From an uncultured bacterium (GTDB lineage Bacteria; Lernaellota; Lernaellaia; Lernaellales; Lernaellaceae): a stretch of DNA of 64,000 nucleotides. Below the pieces are notes generated by a model. That model was given only the letters and a program-made list of their open reading frames with translations. It searched no databases and was not told the DNA's origin. The number at the start of each line of letters is the position of its first letter. The stretch's first letter is position 1. The position numbers and the translations under genes are program-made. Location of the stretch: NCBI GenBank assembly GCA_964511015.1, contig CAZEDX010000007.1:11337-75336 (forward strand), given 5' to 3'. This document shows positions 19,773 through 64,000 of this stretch, in pieces.

Positions 19773-21203
19773 GTGGCGAGAGTTTTTCTGATCAATCCGG
19801 GAATGGATGTGGCCGCCGGCTTCGGTGAATACCAGAAGCTGATGGAACCGATGCCGTGCGTCGGCCTGGCCTACCTGGCTGGCGCCGTCCGCGCGGCCGG
19901 TCATGAAGTGCGTGTGTTGGACAACTTCGTCAACAACCACCCCATCGACCGCGTGGTGGATCTGGTGCGCGAATGGCGCGCTGACGTCGCCGGTTTGTCC
20001 ATGCTGACCCCGACCGCGCGTTCGACCGCGGCGCTGGGCCGGGCGATCCGCGAACGGACCGGCGCGAAGGTCGTCCTCGGCAACCTTCACGCCTCGTTGT
20101 TCCATGAAGAATTGCTCGGTGAAGGCGCGGCCGATGCGGTTGTTCACGGTGAGGGTGAAGTGGTTTTTCCCCGCCTGGTCACCGCTCTGACCGACGGCGG
20201 CGACCCGACGGCCTGGCCGGGTGTCACCGTGCGCAACGGCAGTGGGGTGCGCGGGCAGGTCACGCCGGAGTTGATCGAGAACCTCGACGCGGTGCCGCGG
20301 CCGGCGTGGGATCTTTTCCCCTGGCGGTCCTACACCTTCCTGCCGTTTGTCACGGTGGCCAAACCGTGCCTTTCGTTACTGGGCACGCGTGGCTGTCCGT
20401 TCAATTGCAAGTTCTGTGCGCTCGGCTATCAGGGCAATCGGGTGCGTGTCCGCTCGCCCGAAAACATCACCGACGAAATCGAGTGGCTGGTGCGCGACTA
20501 CGGCATCCGCCACGTTGGTTTCGTTGACCCGATCTTTCCGCTGAGCAAAAAGCACGGACTGGCGACGTGCGCGGCGATACGCGAACGAAACATTCCCGGC
20601 GACTGGTGGTGGACGAGCGAAACGCGCGTGGACGTGGTGGACGAAGAGATCTGCCGTGCGATGAAATCGGCCCGGTGCAAGCGCATCTTGTACGGCGTCG
20701 AGAGTGGAGTCGACGAGCTGTTGGCCGGCGTGGGCAAGAAATTTACCACCGCCGATGTACGCCGAGCCGTGCAGGTGGCGCGTGCTGCCGATCTGGAAAT
20801 CTCGGCGTTTTTCATGCTCGGATTGCCCGGCGAAACCGCGGCGATGACCCGTCGAACCATCGAGTTCGCGCGCGAGCTGGACATCGACTTCGCCAAGTTC
20901 GGCATCACCATTCCGTTGCCGGGGTCCGAACTCTACGACAACCTGGTGCGCGACGGCCGCATCCAGCCCGGCGAGTGGGAAAAGTACACCACGTTCAATC
21001 CCGATCCGGATGCGTTGCCCTACGTGCCGACCGGTTTGACCGGCCGCGAGTTGCAGCGGCTGCATCGCCGCGCGACCTGGCAGTTCTACGTGCGGCCGAA
21101 GATGATCTTCAAACACCTGTTCACGGTGCGGTCGATCGGCTGGAAGCAGCTGTTCAACGGCGCGGCGATTCTGCTGCGTCAGCTATTCCGGGGACGGCTA
21201 TAA
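19773..21203 (+). CDS. Cobalamin-binding radical SAM protein
   Basis: N-terminal B12-binding domain (GLAYLAG, GEGE), RGCPFNCKFC, GVESG, FMLGLPGET. Confidence 0.93.
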   Translation: MARVFLINPGMDVAAGFGEYQKLMEPMPCVGLAYLAGAVRAAGHEVRVLDNFVNNHPIDRVVDLVREWRADVAGLSMLTPTARSTAALGRAIRERTGAKVVLGNLHASLFHEELLGEGAADAVVHGEGEVVFPRLVTALTDGGDPTAWPGVTVRNGSGVRGQVTPELIENLDAVPRPAWDLFPWRSYTFLPFVTVAKPCLSLLGTRGCPFNCKFCALGYQGNRVRVRSPENITDEIEWLVRDYGIRHVGFVDPIFPLSKKHGLATCAAIRERNIPGDWWWTSETRVDVVDEEICRAMKSARCKRILYGVESGVDELLAGVGKKFTTADVRRAVQVARAADLEISAFFMLGLPGETAAMTRRTIEFARELDIDFAKFGITIPLPGSELYDNLVRDGRIQPGEWEKYTTFNPDPDALPYVPTGLTGRELQRLHRRATWQFYVRPKMIFKHLFTVRSIGWKQLFNGAAILLRQLFRGRL

Positions 21204-22751
21204 ATGCGCGTACTGCTCGTGCGCCCGCCCAAATACCTGTGGCCCTACATGAACGAGCAGGACAACTACCTGCTGCCGCAGGCGGTCGTTTGTCTCGGCG
21301 CCGAGGCGCGCCGCCGCGGCCACGAAGTCACCCTGCTCGACTGCCTGCCGGTGAAGATGGGCTGGCGCAGCCTGGAGCGGACCATCCGTGAGTTGCGGCC
21401 GCAGGTCGTGTGCGCCGGCGACAGCGAGACGTTGTACCAGCACGAAAGCGGCCGGGTGTTCCAACTGGCCAAAGCGATCGATCCGCAAATTTTCACCATC
21501 GCGGGCGGTGTGCATTTCTCGCACGCCTGCGAACATGCCTTTGCCCACTACCCGATCGACGCGATCGTGCGTGGTGAGGGTGAACGGACTTTCGGCGAAT
21601 TGCTCGATACACTGGCCGGCGGCGGCACGATCGATCGTATCGCCGGGTTGGCGCTACCCGACGGCCAAGGCGGCGTACGCTACACCGCGCGCCGCGAACT
21701 GATCGACAACCTCGATGAACTTCCCTTGCCGGCCTATGACCTGATGCCGATGGACCGCTATGGCACGGCGCGCTATCTTTTCTCCCCCGGCGGCGTGACC
21801 ATGCACCACAGCCGCGGATGCGTCGACGGCTGCGCCTATTGCGCTTGCTGGCTGCAGATGGCGCGGCGCGACGGCCAACCACCCGGCGAGCAGCTGTTGC
21901 CGCGGTGGCGCACGCGCTCGGTCGGCCCGGTGGTCGACGAGATGGAGCTGCTGCGCCGGCGCTACGGCAAATCCTGCATCGTGTTCGTCGATGACACGTG
22001 GAACGTCGATCCGAAATGGAGCGATGCCTTTGCCGAGGAATTGCTGCGCCGGCGGCTGGACCTTGTCTGGTTCGCATTCATGCGCGCCGATCTACTCGCG
22101 CGCGACGAGGAATCTGGCCTGTTCGCCAAGTTGATGCGCGCGGGGCTGACCCACATTTGCATCGGCATGGAGCGGGCCGACGACGCCGAATTGCGAGATC
22201 TGCAGAAGCACAACATTCGGCTCGAACGCAGCACCGAACTGGTGCGCACCTTGCGCCGCAAACATCCGGCGTTGTTTCTGCAGACGACGTTCATCGTCGG
22301 GTTGCCACAGGACACGCCGGAGAGTCTGGACCGGCTGTTGGGCTACGTCGAAAGCATCGACCCCGATTACCCGGCGTTCCACCCGATCACGCCGGTGCCG
22401 GGCACGGCGTTGTGGGACCAGGCCAAGCAAGACCGGCGCTTGGAGATCACCGACTTTACGCGCTACGACTGGATGACGCCGGTCATGCGCACCGACACGA
22501 TGTCGCGGGAAGATCTCGAATATAAAATCTGGCAGATGAATTCGCGCTACCTCAATCCGTGGCGGATTCTGCGCGGGGCGCTCTCGCGCCACACCTACCG
22601 CCGGCGAATGTACCTATGGTGGTTGCTGGTTAGTGCGCGCGTTGGTTGGGATTTCGTGCTTGACCGCGTGCTGCCGTCGCGTTCGACCCGCCGCAAGGCC
22701 CAGCTCTCGCAGTACGTCGGCATGATCAAACCGGATTGGTACGACCGGTGA
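21204..22751 (+). CDS. Cobalamin-binding radical SAM protein (BchE-like architecture)
   Basis: GGVHFS, GEGE, RGCVDGCAYC, FVDDTW, FIVGLPQDT. Confidence 0.92.
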   Translation: MRVLLVRPPKYLWPYMNEQDNYLLPQAVVCLGAEARRRGHEVTLLDCLPVKMGWRSLERTIRELRPQVVCAGDSETLYQHESGRVFQLAKAIDPQIFTIAGGVHFSHACEHAFAHYPIDAIVRGEGERTFGELLDTLAGGGTIDRIAGLALPDGQGGVRYTARRELIDNLDELPLPAYDLMPMDRYGTARYLFSPGGVTMHHSRGCVDGCAYCACWLQMARRDGQPPGEQLLPRWRTRSVGPVVDEMELLRRRYGKSCIVFVDDTWNVDPKWSDAFAEELLRRRLDLVWFAFMRADLLARDEESGLFAKLMRAGLTHICIGMERADDAELRDLQKHNIRLERSTELVRTLRRKHPALFLQTTFIVGLPQDTPESLDRLLGYVESIDPDYPAFHPITPVPGTALWDQAKQDRRLEITDFTRYDWMTPVMRTDTMSREDLEYKIWQMNSRYLNPWRILRGALSRHTYRRRMYLWWLLVSARVGWDFVLDRVLPSRSTRRKAQLSQYVGMIKPDWYDR

Positions 22752-24228
22752 GCGGTTCGACGCCACGGCTGGCCGGCGCGCGCGTCGCTTTCCTCCAAAC
22801 CAATGCCATCAACGAATCGCTCGGCTTGTGCGACCTGGCCGGCCACCTCCGCGAGCAGGGGGTGACGACGCGCCTGTTCCTGCGGCGCGAAGAGCGGCGA
22901 TTGCCCGAAGAGTTGCGCGCCTTCGCGCCCGAGTTGGTCGTCATTCCGGCCGACCTGTTGGGCCACAACGGCGCCCTCGCGCTGGCTGCGCTGGCGAAGG
23001 CGGCCACCAACGCGCCGACCGTTCTGGGTGGTACGCACCCGACCTTCTTCCCCAACATCGTGCACCGGCCGCATGTCGATTTCGCCTTTGCCGGCGAAGC
23101 GGAAGGGGTAGTGACCGATCTGCTCGCGGCAGTACGTGGCGGCAGCGATCCGTCCGGCATCCCGAATCTCATTGTGCGCGAGGGCGACCAGGAACGCATC
23201 AATCCGTTGCGCCCGCTGGTGGCCGATCTCGACCGGACCGCACTGCCCGACCGCGAAATCTACTATCGCTATCCCTTCCTTTCCGCGTTTCCGTGGAAAA
23301 GTTTGCTACCGGCCGCGGTTGCCTAAATTCCTGCGGCTATTGCTTCAACCCGGCCTACCGCGGGTTGGCCGGCGGTCCGCACGGTTTCTTCCGGCGCAAG
23401 GGGCCAGCGCGCATCGTGCAGGAGATCGAGCAGGTGCGGGCACGGCACCGGTTGGGAATCGTGCATTTTTCCGACGATCTGTTTTCCAGTGGCGAGGAAT
23501 GGCTTGCCTCGTGTGCCGAGGTCTACCGCCGCGAGGTGGCGCTGCCATTCTCGTGCAATGTGTTTGCCACGACGATCAACGAACGCACTGTCGGCGCATT
23601 GCGCGATGCGGGTTGCCGCGTATTGGCGATGGGCGTCGAGATCGCCGATGACGACCTGCGCGTGCGTCTGCTCAACAAGCCGGTGCGCACCGAACAGATT
23701 GTCGCGGCGGCGGCGTTGGTCAAGCAGGCGGGCATCCGGCTGGTGACGTTCAACATTCTCGGCCTGCCATGGTCGTCGCCCGAACAAGACCTCGACACGC
23801 TGCTGCTTAACCGACGTCTGGGCGTCAGCCACACGCGTGTGGCCGTACTGGTTCCGTTCCCCAAAAGTGCACTGACCAAGAAGTTGATCGACGAAGGCTA
23901 TCTGTGCGCCGACTACCACGAGCGTATCTACGAACTCGACGATCTGCCGCGCTGGCCGGCCGAAAGCGTGTTCCGCCGGCGCGATGTCGATCAAACCATG
24001 CGACTGTTCCGCCTCTGGCACCTATTGTTGCGGCTGCCGTTGGCGAAACCGGCGTTATTGCGGCTGGTGCGGTCGCGATGGGCGCAAGCGCTCGTGCCCT
24101 TGGCCTGGTGGTTCGGTCTGACCAACGAGAAACGCCTCTTTGGATTCCGCTGGCGCGAAGGTTTTCGCTATTTCCGGCACGTCAAGAGCCCGGCGCTCAA
24201 AACCACCAATTACGTTTCGTTTGTCTGA
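22748..24228 (+). pseudogene. Cobalamin-binding radical SAM gene split by a frameshift at 23297-23300 (pseudogene, recoding or assembly error)
   Basis: GTG 22748 overlaps previous stop. B12 domain (GGTHPT, GEAE) ends at TAA 23326; the radical SAM half (FATGRGCLNSCGYC...) is in another frame to 24228. One extra A in TGGAAAAG restores ...PWKKFATGRGC. Confidence 0.85.
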
Positions 24229-24233
24229 ACCGG

Positions 24234-26531
24234 CTAGTGACTACCCGTGGCGAACCTGTGCGCCAGCATGATGACGGCCAGGGCGGCATAGCCGATTGCC
24301 GCCTGATAAATGATGTTGGTATAACCGAAGTTGATGATCATCATCATGGCGTAGGTAGCCCCCGCCACCGACGACAAGGTGCTGATAGCGTAGGTGACCG
24401 GCACGGCGTTGTCGCGCCCGTGCCCGGCCAGCCAGGTGACCACGTGCGGGTAGAAGAAGCCCAGGCACAAGCCGACCGGGGAGATGATCAAAACGGTGAT
24501 CACCGTCTTGACCGGCAGCGACCAGCCTAGGCGCCGTTCGATGACCGAGTGAATGATCGACGCCGAAACCGCGACGATGCCGGCCACGATCAGCGGCATC
24601 AGGTTCATCGGCAGCCGGCCGCGCAACCGGTTGTACAACGCGCTGCCCGCGGCGTTGGTCATCAGGAAAATGGTGAGCAACAACGCCATGCTGTATAGCG
24701 GGTTCTCCAGAAACAACTCTAGCTTGCCGATATAAGTGATCTCCACCAGCATGTAACAAAAGCCGGTGACGAGCAGGTACAACATCATGCTCGGCGGCGG
24801 CATCGGCGCGTGGCGCACGTAGAGGAAAGCCAGAATGCCCATCAACACTAAGGCGATCAGCAGCATGGTCGTGATTTTGATCCAACTCCGGTAGTACGCC
24901 ACCGTCGCCAACTCGGCACCGGACGGAATCAGCTTGAAGCCGGCGAAATCCAGCCGGTGTAGATAAGGGCGATCGTCGGTGACCAACAGCGGCTTCGGCA
25001 GCACCGGGCCTTCGATGGCTTTCACGGCGTCCGACCGGTTGTTGGGACGTCCCGGAAGGTAGCGCCGGGTCCGGCCGAACAGATCCGACAGCACTTGCGT
25101 GTCCTGCTCGCTGTAAGGGCTCATCGAGAACATCAGGTCATCGCAGCGGTCCAAGCGGTGACGCGACGCCAGGGCAACATGGTTTTTGAAATCGCTCATG
25201 CCCCGGTCGTTGAAAACCGCCTTCAGCGATTGAATCAGATGCGAAGCGGGTTGGCAGTTGAACATCAACATGCCGTTGGGTCGCAAGTGGTCGAGGTAGA
25301 TCTCGATCGCTTCTCTCGTGTCGAGGTATTTGCGGCTGTGACCGGTTTTGTATTGGGACGTGGCCGCGTCGGAACCGGCGTAGATAACGTCGTATTTGGT
25401 CCGGTCGTTGTCCATGAACCGGCGTCCCTCGACCAAATGCATTTTTACGTGCGGCAGAGCAAAGAAATCACGAAGGTGGTAGTCGGCTAGTTCCGGCGAT
25501 CCCAGGGCGAAATCCATCACTAGCGGGTTGATTTCCACGCCGACCAAACGCCGCCGCCCGCCGCCGATGGCGTTGAACTTGATCATGTCGCGGCCGCAGC
25601 CGGCAAACATGACCAGAATATCGTCGGTCGGCCGCCCCAGCAGGAACGGCGCGCGGACTTCGGAGTTCTTGGCGACCAACGATGAGTCGAGCGGCCGATA
25701 GGGAATGACATAGACATTGCTCTCGGCGTTGTCGTGGACGATCTTGTATTCAGTTCGTTCGTGGCCGGTCTTCTGGATGCTGACCAACGACACGCGGGAG
25801 AACTCGTTCCAACGGTGAGCGATTTCGCGCACAATGCTGTGTTTGTCGGCCACCGCTTGTTGCAGGTCATAACGACCTTCGAGAAAAACAAGCCATGGCA
25901 ACGTGGCTAGGCTAAGAACGAGAAAAACGCCGGCCGTCTTGATCTTTGCCCGGCCAAGCGCCATCGCGGTGACACCGGTCATCGCCAGTAGACAGATGAT
26001 GATCAGGTAAGGCAAGTCGATGAAGTGGAACAGCAGCGGGGTCACACAACAGGCCACCGAAGCGCCGAGCAAGTCACAACCGTAGATCTTGCCGATCCGT
26101 TGCCGATTGATCGCGTACAACGCCGTCAAGATTCGGCCCACGGCATAGAATGGTGGCAGAAAGACCGCCACGAACACGGCCGATTTGAAAAACGACTGCG
26201 CGCCGCCGACGTTCGTGCGGTGAGTGATGGGGAAGAACTGGCTGAACAGCAGGAAAGCCACGGCGAACGACAGGAACGACAACACCGTTAGCCGCGCCAA
26301 CTCCGTGGCCAGGGGGAATTCCTCCACGTTCTTCTTGGAACGGTGAACGCTCAGACTACCCACCGCCAGACCAAACAAGGTCAGCGGAATGGCCAGAAAG
26401 GCGTTGGCATAGTTTAGATAGAAAACGGACATGCGGGAGATCAGCAGCTCGAACATCAAGACGCAGAAAGAGAGAACCAGGACGATCAACAGCGCCTGGC
26501 GGGTTCTATTTTCTTCGGGGGTACCCAACAT
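24234..26531 (-). CDS. Multi-TM membrane protein with central spermidine-synthase/methyltransferase-like domain
   Basis: N- and C-terminal TM bundles flanking WNEFSRV, MFAGCGRD, GVEINP, EGRRF, YDVI...D motifs. Confidence 0.75.
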   Translation of the reverse strand: MLGTPEENRTRQALLIVLVLSFCVLMFELLISRMSVFYLNYANAFLAIPLTLFGLAVGSLSVHRSKKNVEEFPLATELARLTVLSFLSFAVAFLLFSQFFPITHRTNVGGAQSFFKSAVFVAVFLPPFYAVGRILTALYAINRQRIGKIYGCDLLGASVACCVTPLLFHFIDLPYLIIICLLAMTGVTAMALGRAKIKTAGVFLVLSLATLPWLVFLEGRYDLQQAVADKHSIVREIAHRWNEFSRVSLVSIQKTGHERTEYKIVHDNAESNVYVIPYRPLDSSLVAKNSEVRAPFLLGRPTDDILVMFAGCGRDMIKFNAIGGGRRRLVGVEINPLVMDFALGSPELADYHLRDFFALPHVKMHLVEGRRFMDNDRTKYDVIYAGSDAATSQYKTGHSRKYLDTREAIEIYLDHLRPNGMLMFNCQPASHLIQSLKAVFNDRGMSDFKNHVALASRHRLDRCDDLMFSMSPYSEQDTQVLSDLFGRTRRYLPGRPNNRSDAVKAIEGPVLPKPLLVTDDRPYLHRLDFAGFKLIPSGAELATVAYYRSWIKITTMLLIALVLMGILAFLYVRHAPMPPPSMMLYLLVTGFCYMLVEITYIGKLELFLENPLYSMALLLTIFLMTNAAGSALYNRLRGRLPMNLMPLIVAGIVAVSASIIHSVIERRLGWSLPVKTVITVLIISPVGLCLGFFYPHVVTWLAGHGRDNAVPVTYAISTLSSVAGATYAMMMIINFGYTNIIYQAAIGYAALAVIMLAHRFATGSH

Positions 26532-32506: not shown

Positions 32507-33190
32507 TTAATCCTCGTGGCGCTTGCGTCGGCGAGTGTACCACCACAAGCCGCCCAGCACGACCACGACGAACACCGTCGAGAACAGGAAGAACTGCCAG
32601 GTGGTCACCCCGCGCGCCGTCAGTTCCGCGGCTAGCTTGGTGAACAGCAACTGATAGAAAGCGGTGCGCACCAGCATGCCGAGCGCGCTGCCGGCGAAGT
32701 AAGGCCCGAAGCGCAGTTCCACCAGGCCCGCCGCGAAGTTGAAATGGCGGTAGGGCGTGACCGGCAGAATGCGCAACCAGGTGATCGTTTTCCAATCGGC
32801 GCGTTGCAGCTTTTCGTTGAAGCGCGCGAGATGGCGTCCCAGGAGTTGGTCGATCAAGTCCTTGCCCGCCAGCCGCGACAGGGCGAAGCTCGCCGCCGCC
32901 GCAGTCATTTCACCGACCCAGATAATCACGGTGCTGCCGACAAAACCGAACACCTGCGCCCCGGCGATCTTGAGAATGTCGCGCAACGGCACCGGCACGA
33001 TCGAGATCAGCGCATAGACCAACGCCAGCAACGCGCCGGACAGTAGCGGATCGAACGAACGCAGATAGGCGGAGACAGCGGCGAAGGTGTAGTTGTATCG
33101 TCGGGCCAAAAGACCCAAAATGACCAAAGCGGCGACGGCCACTACGAATTTCGCCGCCGCTTTCAACAACCGCCGCGGGTGCTCCTTCAT
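32507..33190 (-). CDS. TVP38/TMEM64 (VTT, DedA superfamily) membrane protein
   Basis: AGAQVFG...F.LSR..G, LRILPVTPY...NFAAG...F..YF.GS.LG pattern. Confidence 0.88.
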   Translation of the reverse strand: MKEHPRRLLKAAAKFVVAVAALVILGLLARRYNYTFAAVSAYLRSFDPLLSGALLALVYALISIVPVPLRDILKIAGAQVFGFVGSTVIIWVGEMTAAAASFALSRLAGKDLIDQLLGRHLARFNEKLQRADWKTITWLRILPVTPYRHFNFAAGLVELRFGPYFAGSALGMLVRTAFYQLLFTKLAAELTARGVTTWQFFLFSTVFVVVVLGGLWWYTRRRKRHED

Positions 33191-33250: not shown

Positions 33251-34480
33251 ATTCGGCTGCTGCTGGCGTCCAACCGCTATTTTTTGTCCGGGGGGCCGGA
33301 ACGCTACCTGTTCGCGGTCAGCTCCTGGTTGGCGGCGCGCGGTCATGAGGTCGTGCCGTTCGCGCTGCGCTATGCGCGCAACGAACCGACGCCCGCCGCG
33401 GCCTACTTTCCGCCGCCGCCGCTCGACGACCAATTCGTGCTGCACGGTGACCGCCGGTTGAGCCTCGGTGAAAAGCTGCGGCTCGCCGCGCGTGTCGTCC
33501 GCGACCGGGAGGTGTACGACGCCACCGCGCGCGTGCTGCGCGAGCGCCGCATCAACGTGGTCTACGCGCTGCAGACCGCGCATTACCTGTATCCGGATCT
33601 CGTCCTGGCCGCGCGCGACGCGGGTGTGCCGGTGGTGATGCGTTTGTCCGACTACCAGATGGTCTGCCCGGCCTACCATTGCCTCCGCACGGGCCGGCCG
33701 TGTTTCGACTGCCGCGACAGTCTGCTGCCGGCGTTGGTGCACCGCTGCCTGAAAAACTCCCTCGCCATCACCGGCACCCGGGTGGCGGCGATGGTCTATG
33801 CGCGCGCGAAGGGAGCGCCGCAAGCGGTGGCGCGTTACCTCGCGCCGAGCCGGTTTCTGATCGACACGATGGCCGCCGGCGGCTTTGACCGGGCGCGCTT
33901 ACGGCACCTGCTGACACCGCTGGCGCTGCCACCTGATCCGGGCCCGCCACCGGCCGACGGACCGCTGCTGTACGTGGGCGGCCTCACCGAAGCCAAGGGT
34001 GTGCGCGTCGCGCTGGAAGCCGTGCGCGGCACCGGCCGGCGGCTATTGCTGGCCGGCGACCCGAATACTCCGGACGCGCGGGCGCTGCAGCAGGCGGTGG
34101 GCGAGGTGCCGGAAGCGGAATTCGTCGGCTTCACCACCGGCGACGCGCTTGACGCCCTGTACGCGCGCTCGAGCGCGGTGCTGGTGCCGTCGCTGTGGTG
34201 GGAAAACGTGCCGCACACGGCGCTGGAGGCGATGGCGCGCCGGCGGCCGGTGCTGGCCAGCGCGCACGGCAGCCTGCCCGAAATCGTTCGCGACGGACAG
34301 ACCGGCTTGTTGGTTCCGCCCGGCAATGTCGCGGCGTGGCGCGAGGCGATTGCGCGGCTCGCGGAGCCGGGGCTGGCCGATCGGCTCGGTCGCACCGGCC
34401 GTGCCATGGTTGCCGCCGAGCACGACCCGCAACGCCATGTCCAGCGGTTGGAAGGCATCTTGCAAGAGGTGCGCTCGTGA
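33251..34480 (+). CDS. Glycosyltransferase family 4
   Basis: RLLLASNRYFLSGGPERY N-terminus, VPSLWWENVPHTALEAMA...GSLPEIV GT-B motif. Probable start is ATT 33251 (see findings). Confidence 0.9.
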   Translation: MRLLLASNRYFLSGGPERYLFAVSSWLAARGHEVVPFALRYARNEPTPAAAYFPPPPLDDQFVLHGDRRLSLGEKLRLAARVVRDREVYDATARVLRERRINVVYALQTAHYLYPDLVLAARDAGVPVVMRLSDYQMVCPAYHCLRTGRPCFDCRDSLLPALVHRCLKNSLAITGTRVAAMVYARAKGAPQAVARYLAPSRFLIDTMAAGGFDRARLRHLLTPLALPPDPGPPPADGPLLYVGGLTEAKGVRVALEAVRGTGRRLLLAGDPNTPDARALQQAVGEVPEAEFVGFTTGDALDALYARSSAVLVPSLWWENVPHTALEAMARRRPVLASAHGSLPEIVRDGQTGLLVPPGNVAAWREAIARLAEPGLADRLGRTGRAMVAAEHDPQRHVQRLEGILQEVRS

Positions 34481-36072
34481 AGAAGCACCGCTTTTTGGCC
34501 GCGCTGGTTATCCTGCACCTGGCGATCACCGGCGCGCTGGCGCTGTTCAATCCGCACGCGTTGCTGATCGATGATGCCTACTACACCCTGACCATCGCGC
34601 GAAACATTGCGACCGGACAGGGCATCACCTATGGCGGCTTCCCCACCAACGGATTCCAACCGTTGTACGCCTTCGTCACAGCGCCGCTGTTGGGGCTGTT
34701 GCCCGGCTATCCCGACCTGTGCCTGCGCTTGGTGCTTTTGTTGATGACAATCTGTTCTGCCGCGTTGCTGGTGGTGATCTATCGGCTGGCCGAGCGCTTG
34801 GCCGGGCCGCATGCCGCCGCGATCGCCGGCCTGCTGTACGCCGCCAATGCCACGCTGATCGGCCAGCTCATGAGCGGGCTGGAAACGCCGCTGCACGGGC
34901 TGCTGTTCTGGGGCTTCGTTGCCCTGTACCTGCGCTGGCGCGACACCGATGCGGTTCGGCAACTGGCCGAGCTGGGCGTGCTGCTGGCACTGACCGCCTA
35001 CGCGCGCTTCGACACGGTCTTTCTGTTTCTCGCCGTCGGTGTCGATCTGGTCAACCGCGATTCACGCCGGCCGGCGCGGTTCATCCGGCGGGGGCTGTCG
35101 TTGTTCGGGCCGGCGCTCGCCTTGCTGGCGCCGTGGTTCGTCTGGTGCCGGGTCACCTTTGGCACCTTCGCGCAATCAAGCGGCGAGTTCCATCGTTGGC
35201 GCGGCCTGGTGCGGCAGGATCTGCCCGACTCGCTGCTGGGCATGTTGCAATTCGGCCTGGCGAAGCTGGTCAGTCTCGGCGTGAAGTTGCCGTTGGAGGC
35301 TGTCGGGTGGGAAGGCGCGTCGCGCACGGCCGTCGGCCGGCTGCTCGGCATCGACCGGCCGCAGACCGGGTTGCTGATCGAACTGGCCCGCCAGCGGCCG
35401 TTGGTCGCGGGACTGTTGTCGACGGCGCTGGTGGGGCTGCTTTGGCTGGCCATCCGCCACGGGCGCGCGGGCTGGCGCAACCTGCGTCAATTGTCGCCGT
35501 TGTCGTTTCTGTGGCCGACGCTCGCCGGCGCCGCGGTCTACTACCCGCTGTACCAGCTGAACTACTCGATGCGCCACTTCTTCCCCTACGGCGTCGGCAT
35601 GGTGATGGTGGTGGCGGTGTTCGCCGCCGGGGTGTTAGGTTCATGGCCGGCAAATCGCGCGCTGCGCGCTGCGCTGGCGGTCTTATTGCTGGCGGCAACG
35701 GCCGGGCCGGGGCTCGGGGTTTGGATCACCAATGCCGATGACCGTGTGCCGCGCCGGTTGATCGCCACGTTGGAGATGGCCACTCCCGCCGGTTCACGGA
35801 TCGGCTACACCGATTGCGGCGTGTTCGGCTACTACGTGCGCGGCCGGACGATCGTCAACCTTGACGGCATTCTGAACTTCGAGGCGCAGCGCGAGATGCG
35901 CGCAGGCGACATCGGCGCGTACCTGCTGCGCCATCGCATCCAGTACGTGTTGTACCTGCATAACTTCCGCGCCGAATTCGCTCAGCAGTGGGACGAAACC
36001 ATTGCTCCGCGCGCCTTGCCGGTGGCGCCCACCGACTGGATCTATCGGATGGTCGGGCCGCCCGGTTCGTAG
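34477..36072 (+). CDS. GT-C-fold (ArnT/PMT-like) polytopic membrane glycosyltransferase
   Basis: GTG overlapping GT4 stop; DDAYYTLTIARN...G, GLETPL, ARFD, C-terminal GYY...NLDGILN soluble domain. Confidence 0.7.
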   Translation: MKKHRFLAALVILHLAITGALALFNPHALLIDDAYYTLTIARNIATGQGITYGGFPTNGFQPLYAFVTAPLLGLLPGYPDLCLRLVLLLMTICSAALLVVIYRLAERLAGPHAAAIAGLLYAANATLIGQLMSGLETPLHGLLFWGFVALYLRWRDTDAVRQLAELGVLLALTAYARFDTVFLFLAVGVDLVNRDSRRPARFIRRGLSLFGPALALLAPWFVWCRVTFGTFAQSSGEFHRWRGLVRQDLPDSLLGMLQFGLAKLVSLGVKLPLEAVGWEGASRTAVGRLLGIDRPQTGLLIELARQRPLVAGLLSTALVGLLWLAIRHGRAGWRNLRQLSPLSFLWPTLAGAAVYYPLYQLNYSMRHFFPYGVGMVMVVAVFAAGVLGSWPANRALRAALAVLLLAATAGPGLGVWITNADDRVPRRLIATLEMATPAGSRIGYTDCGVFGYYVRGRTIVNLDGILNFEAQREMRAGDIGAYLLRHRIQYVLYLHNFRAEFAQQWDETIAPRALPVAPTDWIYRMVGPPGS

Positions 36073-42113: not shown

Positions 42114-43625
42114 CTAGGTCGGGCCGGTGTGATCGACATCCGTTTGGCGCGGCTTTCCCGACCGTCGAACGACGGGCATGAGGGCCACGCCGGCCAGGGC
42201 GACCATCTGGGGTATTACGAGGAGCCGGAAACGATTGTTCTCGCCGAGTTCGGCGGCGTTGCCCACCACGACGACGAACAGTACGTTGAAGCATAGCAGA
42301 CCGACGGTCCAGCGCCACGCCACGGCGTCACGGTCGGGGAAACGACGTGCGCGCCAGGCCAGCACCATTACCACGACCAGGATTGCGGCATATCCGACCA
42401 CGTCGAACCAGCAGACCTCCGCCAGGCCGTCGCCAAAGCAGCCACACAGCGCGAGGTGATAGACCTGATCCCACCAGCCCAATATCTGGCGATTGCGCTC
42501 GACAAACGGATAGCGGCTTGGCGGATAGAAAAACGTCAAGTAACCGCGTCGGAGGTTGGCCAGATCGGCCGCCGGATGCGTCGCGAACAGACGCAACGCG
42601 TCACGCCCATACTGGCGAGAGATGGCCACATAGCCCAGATGATGGAAATTGACGGCGCCGGTCGATTTGGTCGGCTGATCGAGTAGCGGCACGCCGGTTG
42701 GCGGCGGCAGTGGCACTAGATTCTGGTAGGCCGTCAGTACATTGAACGGATGAATCAACACCAGCGGCGAGACCTGTCCCGACTGGGCCAGCATTAGTCG
42801 TTCTTCGCGGGGCAGGTTGGCGGTGATGACGCGGGACAAATTCAAGCCGAACCAGGTGCTGCCGGTAAATTCGCCAAACACCAGGTAGTTCTTCGCGTAC
42901 CAACCGACGGCCAGCAACAGCGGCAACAGAGCGGCGGCGAGCAGTCGTCGTGGTTCGATTCGCCGCGCCAAAAGCAGAGCGGCGATGACGATCAAAAACC
43001 AGAGCAGCGAAAACAGTGAGCGTAGCAGCACCAGCGCGGCGAGGCAGGCAAAAAAGGCCAGTCCGTCGCGCGTCCGTTCGCGTTGCAGGTAAGCGTGCAA
43101 GCGCGACGCGGCGACGACCAACAACAAGGCCGTCGGCAATTCATAAAACAGGTAGTTCTCGTAGAGCAGCAAATCCGGACTGATGGCGAACAGCGCAGTC
43201 AGCGCACCACGCAAGCCCGGCGCGACCTTCAGTCGTGCCAGCAGGAAATACAATGCCAGGCACAATGCCCAACCAAGAAGCAGAAACGCCGTTTGGAACA
43301 GCCACACCGCGTTCTCGCCGCCGAGCTTTAACCCGAAGCCCAGAAACAGGTTGAACAACGGAGGCTGGCCGCCAAGATAGAAAATACTGCGCGCCAAATC
43401 GGTGCGGAGCAACGCCGGGTCGATGAATTGCCAACACCGGCCCAGCGTCGAGGCGTCGAACCGCACACCGGCCACGTACGCCGCCACACGTGCCGACCAG
43501 AACAGCAGCGAGAGGACGACGCCGCCACCACGCACAGTCCGTGCGTAAGCGATAATCCGGCCACAAGAGGTGTTTCCGGTCACCTGGCCGCCTTTGTTGT
43601 GCAATGACGGTTGATCTTCGCGCAA
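42114..43625 (-). CDS. Polytopic membrane protein, probable GT-C-like
   Basis: About 10 hydrophobic segments, QPPLFNL, YELPT, large loop with KNY..FG, terminal ENNRF; start uncertain. Confidence 0.6.
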   Translation of the reverse strand: MREDQPSLHNKGGQVTGNTSCGRIIAYARTVRGGGVVLSLLFWSARVAAYVAGVRFDASTLGRCWQFIDPALLRTDLARSIFYLGGQPPLFNLFLGFGLKLGGENAVWLFQTAFLLLGWALCLALYFLLARLKVAPGLRGALTALFAISPDLLLYENYLFYELPTALLLVVAASRLHAYLQRERTRDGLAFFACLAALVLLRSLFSLLWFLIVIAALLLARRIEPRRLLAAALLPLLLAVGWYAKNYLVFGEFTGSTWFGLNLSRVITANLPREERLMLAQSGQVSPLVLIHPFNVLTAYQNLVPLPPPTGVPLLDQPTKSTGAVNFHHLGYVAISRQYGRDALRLFATHPAADLANLRRGYLTFFYPPSRYPFVERNRQILGWWDQVYHLALCGCFGDGLAEVCWFDVVGYAAILVVVMVLAWRARRFPDRDAVAWRWTVGLLCFNVLFVVVVGNAAELGENNRFRLLVIPQMVALAGVALMPVVRRSGKPRQTDVDHTGPT

Positions 43626-61821: not shown

Positions 61822-61864
61822 GATTGTGCGGCACGGGAGCTTGGGGCTCCGAAGGAGGGAAAGG

Positions 61865-63091
61865 ATGTCTCTGAAGTTCAAGATCGTAGAGCCGGATAGC
61901 GGCGCCAAGTTGAAGGTCGTCGGCATCGGCGGCGGCGGCGGCAACGCCGTCAACACGATGATCGAGGCTGGCCTCCAGGGCGTGGAATTCATCGCCTGCA
62001 ACACCGACAAGCAGGCGCTGGCGTCCAACCTGGCGGCGGTCAAGGTGCAGCTCGGCATCGGCTTGGGGGCCGGCGGCAAACCGGAGGTCGGCGCGCGGTC
62101 GGCCGAGGAGAGCCGCGAGAAGCTGCGCGAGGTGCTCGACGGCGCCGACATGGTGTTCGTCACCGCGGGCATGGGCGGCGGCACCGGCACCGGCGGCGCG
62201 CCGGTCGTGGCCAAGATCGCCAAGGAAATGGGTGCGCTGACGGTCGGCGTAGTGACCAAGCCGTTCCATTTCGAAGGCAAGCGGCGCATGCGGCAGGCCG
62301 AGGAAGGCATCGCCAAGCTGCGCGAGCACGTGGATACGATCATCATCATTCCGAACCAGAAATTGCTGGCCGTGGCCGGCACCGACACCACGCTGGTCGA
62401 CGCCTTCCGGCGCGCCGACGACGTGTTGCTCAAGGGCGTGAAGGCGATCTCCGACCTGGTGGTGAACCAGGGCGCGGTGAACCTCGACTTCGCTGACGTC
62501 GAATCGGTGATGGAAGCGACCGAGTCCACCGGCGAACTGGCGTTGATGGGCACCGGCGAAGCGGCCGGCGCCGACCGCGCGGTCAAGGCCGCGGCGGAGG
62601 CGATCAGCTGCCCGTTGCTGGAAAACGTCAGCATCGAAGGCGCGCGCGGGGTGTTGATCAACATCACCGGCGGCGCCGATCTCAAGCTGTGCGAAGTCAC
62701 CGCGGCGGCCGATCTGATCAAGAAGGCGACCGCCGAAGATGCGGCGATCTTCTGGGGCCAGGTCATCGACCCGACGCTCACCGACGTACTGCGCGTGACG
62801 GTCATCGCCACCGGTTTCGACGAGGCGCGCGAACACGCGCAGACGCCGGTGGTCGAACGGCAGAAGGTGACCTACCTCAACCAGGCCGTCGAGCCGGAGG
62901 CAAAAGAGACGCGTGCGCCGCGCCAACGCGCCGAGCGGGTCGAGGAAGCGCCGATTACCGTCGAGACCGATCCGAAATTGAACCAGCCGCGGCGCAAGGT
63001 GGCGGTGCACACCTGGCGGTCGAGCCGGTTGCAGGCCGACGACGACGCCTACGACATTCCGGCGTTTCTGCGGTATCGCAAACCGGATTGA
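61865..63091 (+). CDS. ftsZ: Cell division GTPase FtsZ
   Basis: [32 protein letters not shown]-terminal DIPAFLR; ATG 61865 with SD. Confidence 0.98.
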
Positions 63092-63448: not shown

Positions 63449-64000
63449 TTAGCAGCCACAGCCGCCGGTGTCGTCATCATCATCGCCGGTTCCCTGGTCG
63501 TCGTCGGCATCGTCGTCGGCGGCGGTGTCGTCATCGGCGGCGTCGTCGTCGGCCGGCGGGGCGTCTTCGGGTTTGGCGGCGTTGGAGATGTAAGACATCA
63601 GCCCGACGTCGTCGAACGAACGCAGGGCGAAGGAGGCCGCGCCGGGCGCCGTGACCTTCACCACCACTTCCAGACCGCCCTCGATGGGTGTGACGCTTTC
63701 CAGCGATGTCGCGCCGGACCAACCGCTCGCGCTGCGCAAGTCGACGCCGCTATCCGTGGTGTAGCGCAGATCGTAGGACAGCGCCGTGCCGCAATCGTGG
63801 TCGTCGCCGGGCGCGGTGAAGTGCAGTTCGAAGACGTCCGGATCATCGGTCTTGTAGGCGACCAGATCGCGCACCATGCGCGGCGGCAGCGTGTCGGCGC
63901 CGTAGAAGCCGCTGTTGTAGTTGTCGTGGTGGAACCGACCCCATTCGCGCGTGCTCTCGCCACGGCGGCAAGCCTTGCCACGCGTGTACCAGGCGAACAG
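63449..64000 (-). CDS. C-terminal part of a probable secreted/surface protein (FN3-like domain, Asp-rich linker, terminal GGCGC); 5' end off window
   Basis: Frame open from 64000: ...WGRFHHDNYNSG...FTAPGDDHDCGTALSYDLRY...DDDAADDDTAADDDADDDQGTGDDDDDTGGCGC-TAA. Confidence 0.85.
   Translation of the reverse strand: MFAWYTRGKACRRGESTREWGRFHHDNYNSGFYGADTLPPRMVRDLVAYKTDDPDVFELHFTAPGDDHDCGTALSYDLRYTTDSGVDLRSASGWSGATSLESVTPIEGGLEVVVKVTAPGAASFALRSFDDVGLMSYISNAAKPEDAPPADDDAADDDTAADDDADDDQGTGDDDDDTGGCGC

Follow-up and report, generated by a model that had tools for sequence, protein, structure and literature searches.

Why should an apparently exported protein run through a long stretch of aspartates and then stop directly after Gly-Gly-Cys-Gly-Cys? 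The question is raised by a gene that runs off the end of the window, by which we mean the whole 64,000-nucleotide stretch of Lernaellota DNA analysed here.

The gene and its C-terminal tail

A sequence-only reading of the window had quoted this tail and its coordinates, and both proved exact on retranslation: the minus strand of positions 63449–64000 encodes 183 codons that end ...PEDAPPADDDAADDDTAADDDADDDQGTGDDDDDTGGCGC and are followed by TAA at 63449–63451, the last residues and the stop being ...DDDDDTGGCGC-TAA. The features of the region are the following.

63449..64000, minus strand: 3' end of the gene for an S8 peptidase/FG-GAP exported protein (P0161), 183 codons and the stop; the gene extends past the window end
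63908..63943, minus strand: WGRFHHDNYNSG motif that closes the FG-GAP region; W20, H25, D26, N29 and G31 are invariant in alignment A1
63563..63883, minus strand: FN3-type beta-sandwich domain (AlphaFold2 pLDDT ~90; FN3 matches in the PDB by Foldseek)
63467..63550, minus strand: Asp-rich disordered linker, 28 amino acids, 61% Asp, without Lys or Arg
63452..63466, minus strand: terminal Gly-Gly-Cys-Gly-Cys, the MYXO-CTERM signature motif at a free C-terminus
63449..63451, minus strand: TAA stop directly after the last Cys; the read-through frame encodes no helix
63274..63299, plus strand: terminator-like GC hairpin and T run between the convergent ftsZ (61826–63091) and the tagged gene

The full-length product, P0161, was recovered with a profile of full-length orthologues; it has 1337 amino acids, and its C-terminus is the window fragment. 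It consists, in order, of a Sec signal peptide, an Ig-like domain, an S8 peptidase domain, FG-GAP repeats, an FN3 domain, the Asp linker and GGCGC. Its N-terminus reads MKSLRLLLIASLLTLVLLSSAEA|FD, a signal peptide of the SPase-I type (AEA|FD), and judged from it P0161 is exported by Sec, as the sequence-only reading had thought likely. That reading had also seen an FN3-like domain, which the structure prediction bears out: in the AlphaFold2 model of the fragment residues ~40–146 form a beta-sandwich (pLDDT ~90) and the tail is unstructured, and the best Foldseek matches in the PDB are FN3 domains (E 1.6e-4, probability 1.0). There is in addition a weak match of this region to the CLCA FN3 region. 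Neither Lys nor Arg occurs among the last 40 residues of the protein.

The same architecture is uniform among the orthologues (Sec signal peptide, Big_5 Ig-like domain, Peptidase_S8, FG-GAP repeats, FN3, Asp-rich linker and Cys motif), and their FG-GAP repeats are closed by a W-x-F-H-H-D-x-x-N-[ST]-G motif. Close orthologues are annotated as S8 family serine peptidases (Ca. Lernaella stagnicola as well as Ca. Alcyoniella australis), further ones come from MAGs labelled Deltaproteobacteria or Myxococcales bacterium, and identity in comparisons of the C-terminal fragment is at most ~55%, so that the window must belong to a different, though related, organism. The tagged gene converges on the end of the dcw cluster (murB, ddl, ftsQ, ftsA and ftsZ, the last at 61826–63091); this murB-ddl-ftsQAZ neighbourhood is kept in none of the fetched orthologue loci, and no Rfam family matches the 3' hairpin element. 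Among the 383 stop-to-stop ORFs of at least 80 amino acids in the window, the gene at 63449 is the only one with an acidic, CxC-terminal tail.

Conservation of the ending and its spread to unrelated proteins

All three first-pass homologues end with an Asp-rich stretch and GCCGC, GCGC or CCG, and the seven closest loci in GTDB genomes all have an Asp-rich stretch and a terminal Cys motif likewise. An exhaustive search of cluster representatives with a four-sequence profile, which was dominated by multi-repeat FG-GAP/FN3 proteins, found nine further tail-bearing orthologues. A CxC ending is present in 43 of the best 120 profile matches, and nearly all of these 43 belong to a clade of proteins of ~1340 amino acids. 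The linker of the orthologues is 6–102 residues long (median 34), 59% Asp and free of Lys and Arg; the terminal motifs are CGC (n=28), CCGC (n=4) and CCG (n=3), a few with one to three extra residues. Almost all full-length orthologues have a signal-peptide-like start, and the few exceptions resemble miscalled starts. The ending is retained across orthologues that are only 40–60% identical to one another. Its Gly and Cys codons differ synonymously between them and TAA, TAG and TGA all occur as stops, which argues that selection acts on the peptide and not on the DNA; a DNA- or RNA-level cause of the conserved ending was considered and rejected for the synonymous variation of the codons.

It had also been suggested that the tail might be common to many proteins, and this is the case. 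A DNA pattern (four Asp codons, a gap of at most 12 nucleotides, [G/C]-C-G-C and a stop) matched at least 120 metagenome stretches, a sample biased by the pattern itself, and these hold at least 58 in-frame ORFs of at least 90 amino acids with the Asp run and the Cys ending; the out-of-frame matches are short Arg-rich chance ORFs. When the acidic regions are masked the 58 listed ORFs fall into at least 31 blastp clusters, with the P0161 family accounting for four of the 58, so the tail is not unique to this gene. Among the matches listed, the Pfam domains of the tagged ORFs include those of enzymes (peptidases C25, C1, S8 and M28, GH2, GH18, NAGidase and purple-acid-type metallophosphatases) and of transglutaminase-like, PKD, FG-GAP, BNR/sortilin and kelch proteins. 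A signal-peptide-like start, called by a simple heuristic in tagged and control ORFs, was found in 44 of the 46 complete tagged ORFs among the matches listed and in 67 of 159 neighbouring untagged ORFs (Fisher p = 5e-12), the very enrichment for which the sequence-only reading had proposed to look. Tagged genes often lie side by side (loci L055, L057, L063, L087, L137 and L156), and in assembly Ga0116164 at least 13 genes with the strict pattern were counted on ten of the largest contigs (~1.5 Mb together), which gives an indirect idea of the number per genome.

One such protein lies beside a P0161 orthologue in the same MAG (L002, 318–1802, plus strand); it is an unrelated Cys-rich-repeat protein of 494 amino acids with a signal peptide and the ending ...SSAGCGC-stop. 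On these sequences the tail is a modular C-terminal tag borne by many unrelated exported hydrolases and adhesin-like proteins of Lernaellota-like bacteria. A profile of 52 tail peptides gave no match at E ≤ 1 in a set of 5.8 billion proteins, which we blame on the low complexity of poly-Asp. The L002 protein has about eight C..GCC..G.C..G....CG..G..C..C repeats and then an Asp-rich linker of ~130 amino acids, and matches nothing in Pfam or NCBIfam. A helix hidden behind the stop and reached by read-through was also considered; it was rejected, the read-through frame encoding a helix in none of the 58 listed ORFs.

Relation to MYXO-CTERM and other sorting signals

In Haft's survey all prokaryotic C-terminal sorting signals consist of a signature, a membrane helix and a basic cluster, and each has a cleaving enzyme. 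Of these the MYXO-CTERM signal (TIGR03901) is the one that the window tail resembles. Both have a Cys signature (GC, often GCGC; here GGCGC) near the C-terminus behind a disordered linker, both occur on proteins with an N-terminal signal peptide (P0161, and 44 of the 46 complete ORFs among the matches listed), and both are common to otherwise dissimilar exported hydrolases and adhesins (at least 58 ORFs in at least 31 clusters for the tag described here). The helix that directly follows the signature in MYXO-CTERM is absent from the window protein, where TAA follows the last Cys, as is the C-terminal Arg-rich cluster, and the protein ends at the proposed cut site of the protease. The helix-less tail, moreover, almost always has two Cys rather than one, and it scores nothing on TIGR03901.2: neither the window fragment nor the tail-only peptides match the TIGR03901 HMM (cutoff 20 bits) at E ≤ 10. 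The hosts differ as well; MYXO-CTERM is described in the Haft preprint as confined to Myxococcota plus Bradymonadales and to the tripartite form, and the lineage with the helix-less tag is Lernaellota-like.

The orthologues of P0161 itself connect the two forms. Distant ones (30–35% identity, ~1100–1470 amino acids, some labelled Myxococcota) end with GC[GSA]C, a hydrophobic helix and RRRR; the six that were tested with TIGR03901.2 all score 22–35 bits (cutoff 20), and four distant orthologues carry the JGI name "MYXO-CTERM domain-containing protein". Five close orthologues (P0176, P0180, P0184, P0185 and L007) have GCGC, a spacer of 15–20 amino acids, a helix and a basic tail, and are not recognised by TIGR03901.2. 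In addition, both forms of the tag are found 2 kb apart on one contig, Ga0272444_10004827:

L101 5788–7590, plus strand: full MYXO-CTERM gene
L101 9753–11660, plus strand: unrelated helix-less gene with the Asp run and GCGC-stop, ending ...DDNDDGCGC-stop

The product of the first gene ends with DDDDDDDDDDGCGC, a helix and RK, more fully ...PADDDDDDDDDDGCGC-RAGGNTTALP-LTAMMLLIGLAAFCFGL-RKNQ; it passes TIGR03901.2 and has the Asp-run and GCGC signature. By sequence comparison, then, the resemblance to a cleaved MYXO-CTERM tail, which had been pointed out earlier, reflects common ancestry with MYXO-CTERM, and the suggestion of a new anchoring system unrelated to known ones gives way to that of a helix-less MYXO-CTERM derivative.

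In a rough neighbor-joining tree calculated without the last 90 residues the MYXO-CTERM forms fall outside the ~1340-amino-acid clade, in which ~45 of the 52 members are helix-less and the helix-bearing forms make up two small nested groups. Two Cys within the last few residues are present in 45 of 46 helix-less and 29 of 46 helix-bearing orthologues (p = 1.4e-5, uncorrected for phylogeny). These data bear on the possibility that the tail is a functionless remnant of MYXO-CTERM after loss of the helix, or an artefact of a premature stop or assembly error. The few close orthologues that still have GCGC, spacer, helix and basic tail could be taken in its favour, and the sequence-only reading had held that orthologues running on into a TM helix would mark the stop as a truncation. 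Taken literally, a few close and most distant orthologues do run on in this way, but the stop is not an accidental truncation, as the helix-less state dominates the deep clade and many other families. A remnant or artefact would scarcely be retained in ~45 of 52 members diverged to 40–60% identity and recur in at least 31 unrelated clusters, with synonymous codon changes, all three stops and no helix in the read-through frames; the conservation data make this explanation unlikely, and we give it very little credence.

Homologues elsewhere have other endings or none: MYXO-CTERM, a CFI-box-like tail, a tripartite Cys tail in a Nevskia orthologue, and no tag in Actinomycetota orthologues. Such varied anchors among orthologues amount to the "choice of anchor" behaviour that is Haft's criterion for sorting signals. 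The CFI-box-like tail is a second short Cys tail in the same protein family; these helix-less orthologues, from Bacteriovoracaceae and Desulfomonilia MAGs, end with GG[WIL]CF[ILM]xTA..:

L012 2524–6309
L014 6719–10438
L016 6785–10447
L034 7064–10453

The first of them scores 12.4 bits with NF041763, the "CFI-box putative sorting motif" (cutoff 15.9).

No model in NCBIfam (June 2026 release) or Pfam matches the window tail, those of the LPXTG, PEP-CTERM, T9SS CTD and GlyGly-CTERM domains included. Like the CFI-box it is a short C-terminal Cys motif without the full tripartite architecture, but CFI tails have a different sequence, a single Cys followed by 6–10 mostly hydrophobic residues, and the 14-position NF041763 model finds no match at the C-terminus of the window protein. 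Eukaryotic CAAX-box and Rab CXC/CC proteins likewise have Cys at the extreme C-terminus, including CXC, and myxosortases are members of the Rce1/CPBP family. This likeness is an analogy only, and the comparison with Rab proteins made by the sequence-only reading does not fit, because Rab prenylation is cytosolic and the window protein, although it has the CXC, has a Sec signal peptide and extracytoplasmic domains; nor is a prenyltransferase or REP-like factor implicated. With the lipobox of the Lgt/LspA lipoprotein pathway the tail shares a Cys preceded by a small residue (Gly), but the lipobox is N-terminal, in the signal peptide, whereas the window protein has an SPase-I type signal peptide (AEA|FD) and its Cys pair is at the free C-terminus.

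Possible roles of the terminal cysteines

In the published model of MYXO-CTERM sorting, Sec export is followed by retention of the protein in the inner membrane by the helix, a yet-unnamed Lgt-like enzyme lipidates the Cys of the "generic GCGC motif", myxosortase cuts distal to this Cys, and the T2SS carries the lipid-anchored protein to the surface (PMC11980579; Haft preprint). Cleavage and anchoring both depend on the Cys residues; the lipidation of these residues is a proposal only, even in Myxococcus, with Lgt as the leading candidate enzyme (PMC11980579). Because the window protein ends exactly at the proposed myxosortase cut, its tail can be read as a helix-less, "pre-cleaved" variant of the MYXO-CTERM signal, Cys-modified and tethered to the surface without a myxosortase cut, and we judge the chances that this is correct to be about even. 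For the tagged proteins we infer Cys modification, surface retention and an export route along these lines. One or both terminal Cys would be S-modified, the likeliest modification being a lipid, and the enzyme would be the same "Lgt-like" one that has been proposed for MYXO-CTERM; no intramembrane cleavage would be needed, since the helix and the Arg cluster are not made and the protein already ends where the protease is thought to cut; and the modified protein would stay attached to the cell surface, the Asp-rich stalk keeping the enzyme at a distance from the membrane. The main weakness of the pre-cleaved reading is that, the helix being absent, there is no obvious means of keeping the tail at the inner membrane within reach of a membrane enzyme, and that the window and the fetched loci yielded no enzyme for the modification. 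The two-Cys rule could, besides, just as well reflect metal chelation or disulfide chemistry.

The tagged proteins might accordingly be released, with poly-Asp and the terminal Cys-Gly-Cys serving as a non-covalent or redox handle and not as a lipid anchor; Ca2+/Mg2+ bridging to the envelope, metal or mineral binding in anoxic habitats and disulfide exchange with a partner are possibilities. A CxC unit with a role in chelation or redox chemistry would be expected to have two nearly obligatory Cys, as seen here (45 of 46); the linker is ~59% Asp without Lys or Arg, several of the source metagenomes (digesters, lake water and sediments) are presumably anoxic, and no lipidating enzyme was found in the window or the fetched loci. 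On the other hand, orthologues of other lineages bear the membrane-anchoring MYXO-CTERM at the same position, the same organisms retain a small number of full tripartite copies in which the Asp-run and GCGC signature is identical, and a Gly stands before each Cys, which is also the pattern of lipid-modified Cys motifs. We consider a handle of this kind unlikely but deserving of attention.

The tail might also be a recognition signal only, for crossing of the outer membrane by the T2SS or some other system, with no covalent modification. This would agree with the dependence of MYXO-CTERM cargo on the T2SS in M. xanthus (PMC11980579) and with a tag that is modular, C-terminal and carried by Sec-exported cargo. 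It leaves the strict retention of two Cys unexplained, however, and no secretion genes are linked to the tag in the window or the fetched loci. The T2SS, moreover, generally recognises folded cargo and not a four-residue terminus, and we regard a crossing signal as improbable.

The pre-cleaved reading can be taken a step further. A free C-terminal Gly-Cys-Gly-Cys alone might suffice for Cys lipidation after export and for surface tethering, without helix, basic tail or sorting protease, and would then be the first prokaryotic C-terminal anchoring signal without a tripartite structure, in use on dozens of proteins per genome in Lernaellota-like bacteria; this stronger statement we advance tentatively and with more doubt than conviction. 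Full-text literature searches brought up no description of a helix-less GCGC-stop tag, and the tail goes unmentioned in the paper that named the Lernaellota. An entire lineage appears to have lost both the helix and the requirement for cleavage but to keep the Cys pair strictly; should the tag still function, the chemistry at the Cys can do without helix and protease, and the tagged proteins are natural "pre-cleaved" substrates with a C-terminal peptide open to direct analysis. The Cys-modifying enzyme is called the main gap in the model in the 2025 myxosortase paper (PMC11980579), and comparison of genomes that have GCGC-stop only, MYXO-CTERM only, both or neither offers a way to it: should GCGC alone suffice, tag-bearing genomes without myxosortase would point to the Cys-modifying enzyme of MYXO-CTERM. 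The tag also marks degradative enzymes, secreted or at the surface, in a phylum that is uncultured, and, nameless as it is in current annotation pipelines, could be added to them.

No CPBP-family myxosortase was found in the 64-kb window, a scan for the EExxxR...FxxxH...HxxxN motif was empty across all fetched loci, and nothing in the window or these loci connected the tag with a modifying enzyme, a myxosortase or a T2SS. The only multi-pass membrane proteins of the window with a Pfam match are a PMT_2-type glycosyltransferase-like protein (34195–36069, plus strand) and a VTT/DedA-family protein (32510–33190, minus strand), and no link of either to the tag was found; two other multi-pass proteins (24237–26531 and 42117–43625) matched no family. 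The window also contains three consecutive radical SAM genes (19773–24225, plus strand), two of them with B12-binding domains. Close homologues of the B12-binding one at 19773–21200 recur near tagged genes in six loci: in L004, L041, L077 and L111 they lie at a distance of 5–8 kb from the tagged P0161 orthologue, and in L117 and L152 they are close to tagged genes of other kinds. The recurrence is most likely due to clade synteny or to the abundance of a paralogue family, and less probably to a partnership with the tag.

Several small observations on tagged genes may be added. Two tiny ORFs (L088 453–767 and L142 611–922, both on the plus strand) encode a lipoprotein-type signal peptide with a lipobox Cys, mostly poly-Asp, and a terminal GCGC; these small peptides, if real, would have Cys motifs at both ends. 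A family of tagged proteins of ~210 amino acids with Asp-rich stretches at both ends adjoins, in each case, a large multi-pass membrane protein in which TPR repeats can be seen by eye, forming a conserved gene pair (L052 1380–2045 and 2298–2879; L073 3555–4184 and 907–3288; L153 218–895 and 1150–1521). Finally, a conserved hairpin element of ~45 nucleotides, ...ACGATTGAGCG.AGCGAAATCCCGCC-NNNN-GGCGGGA, lies just 3' of the GCGC-stop in L045 (2819–5074, minus strand), L124 (11643–12545, minus strand), L156 (810–2612 and 3844–5559, both plus strand), L155 and L073, and is absent from Rfam. Four genes have behind it a near-exact repeat of their own last 15 nucleotides, so that the read-through frame is open for 17–22 codons and would add (R)RLxEAKSRxRR(DD)GCGC before a second stop; a small insertion element that has produced a target-site duplication and a read-through extension are both conceivable explanations.
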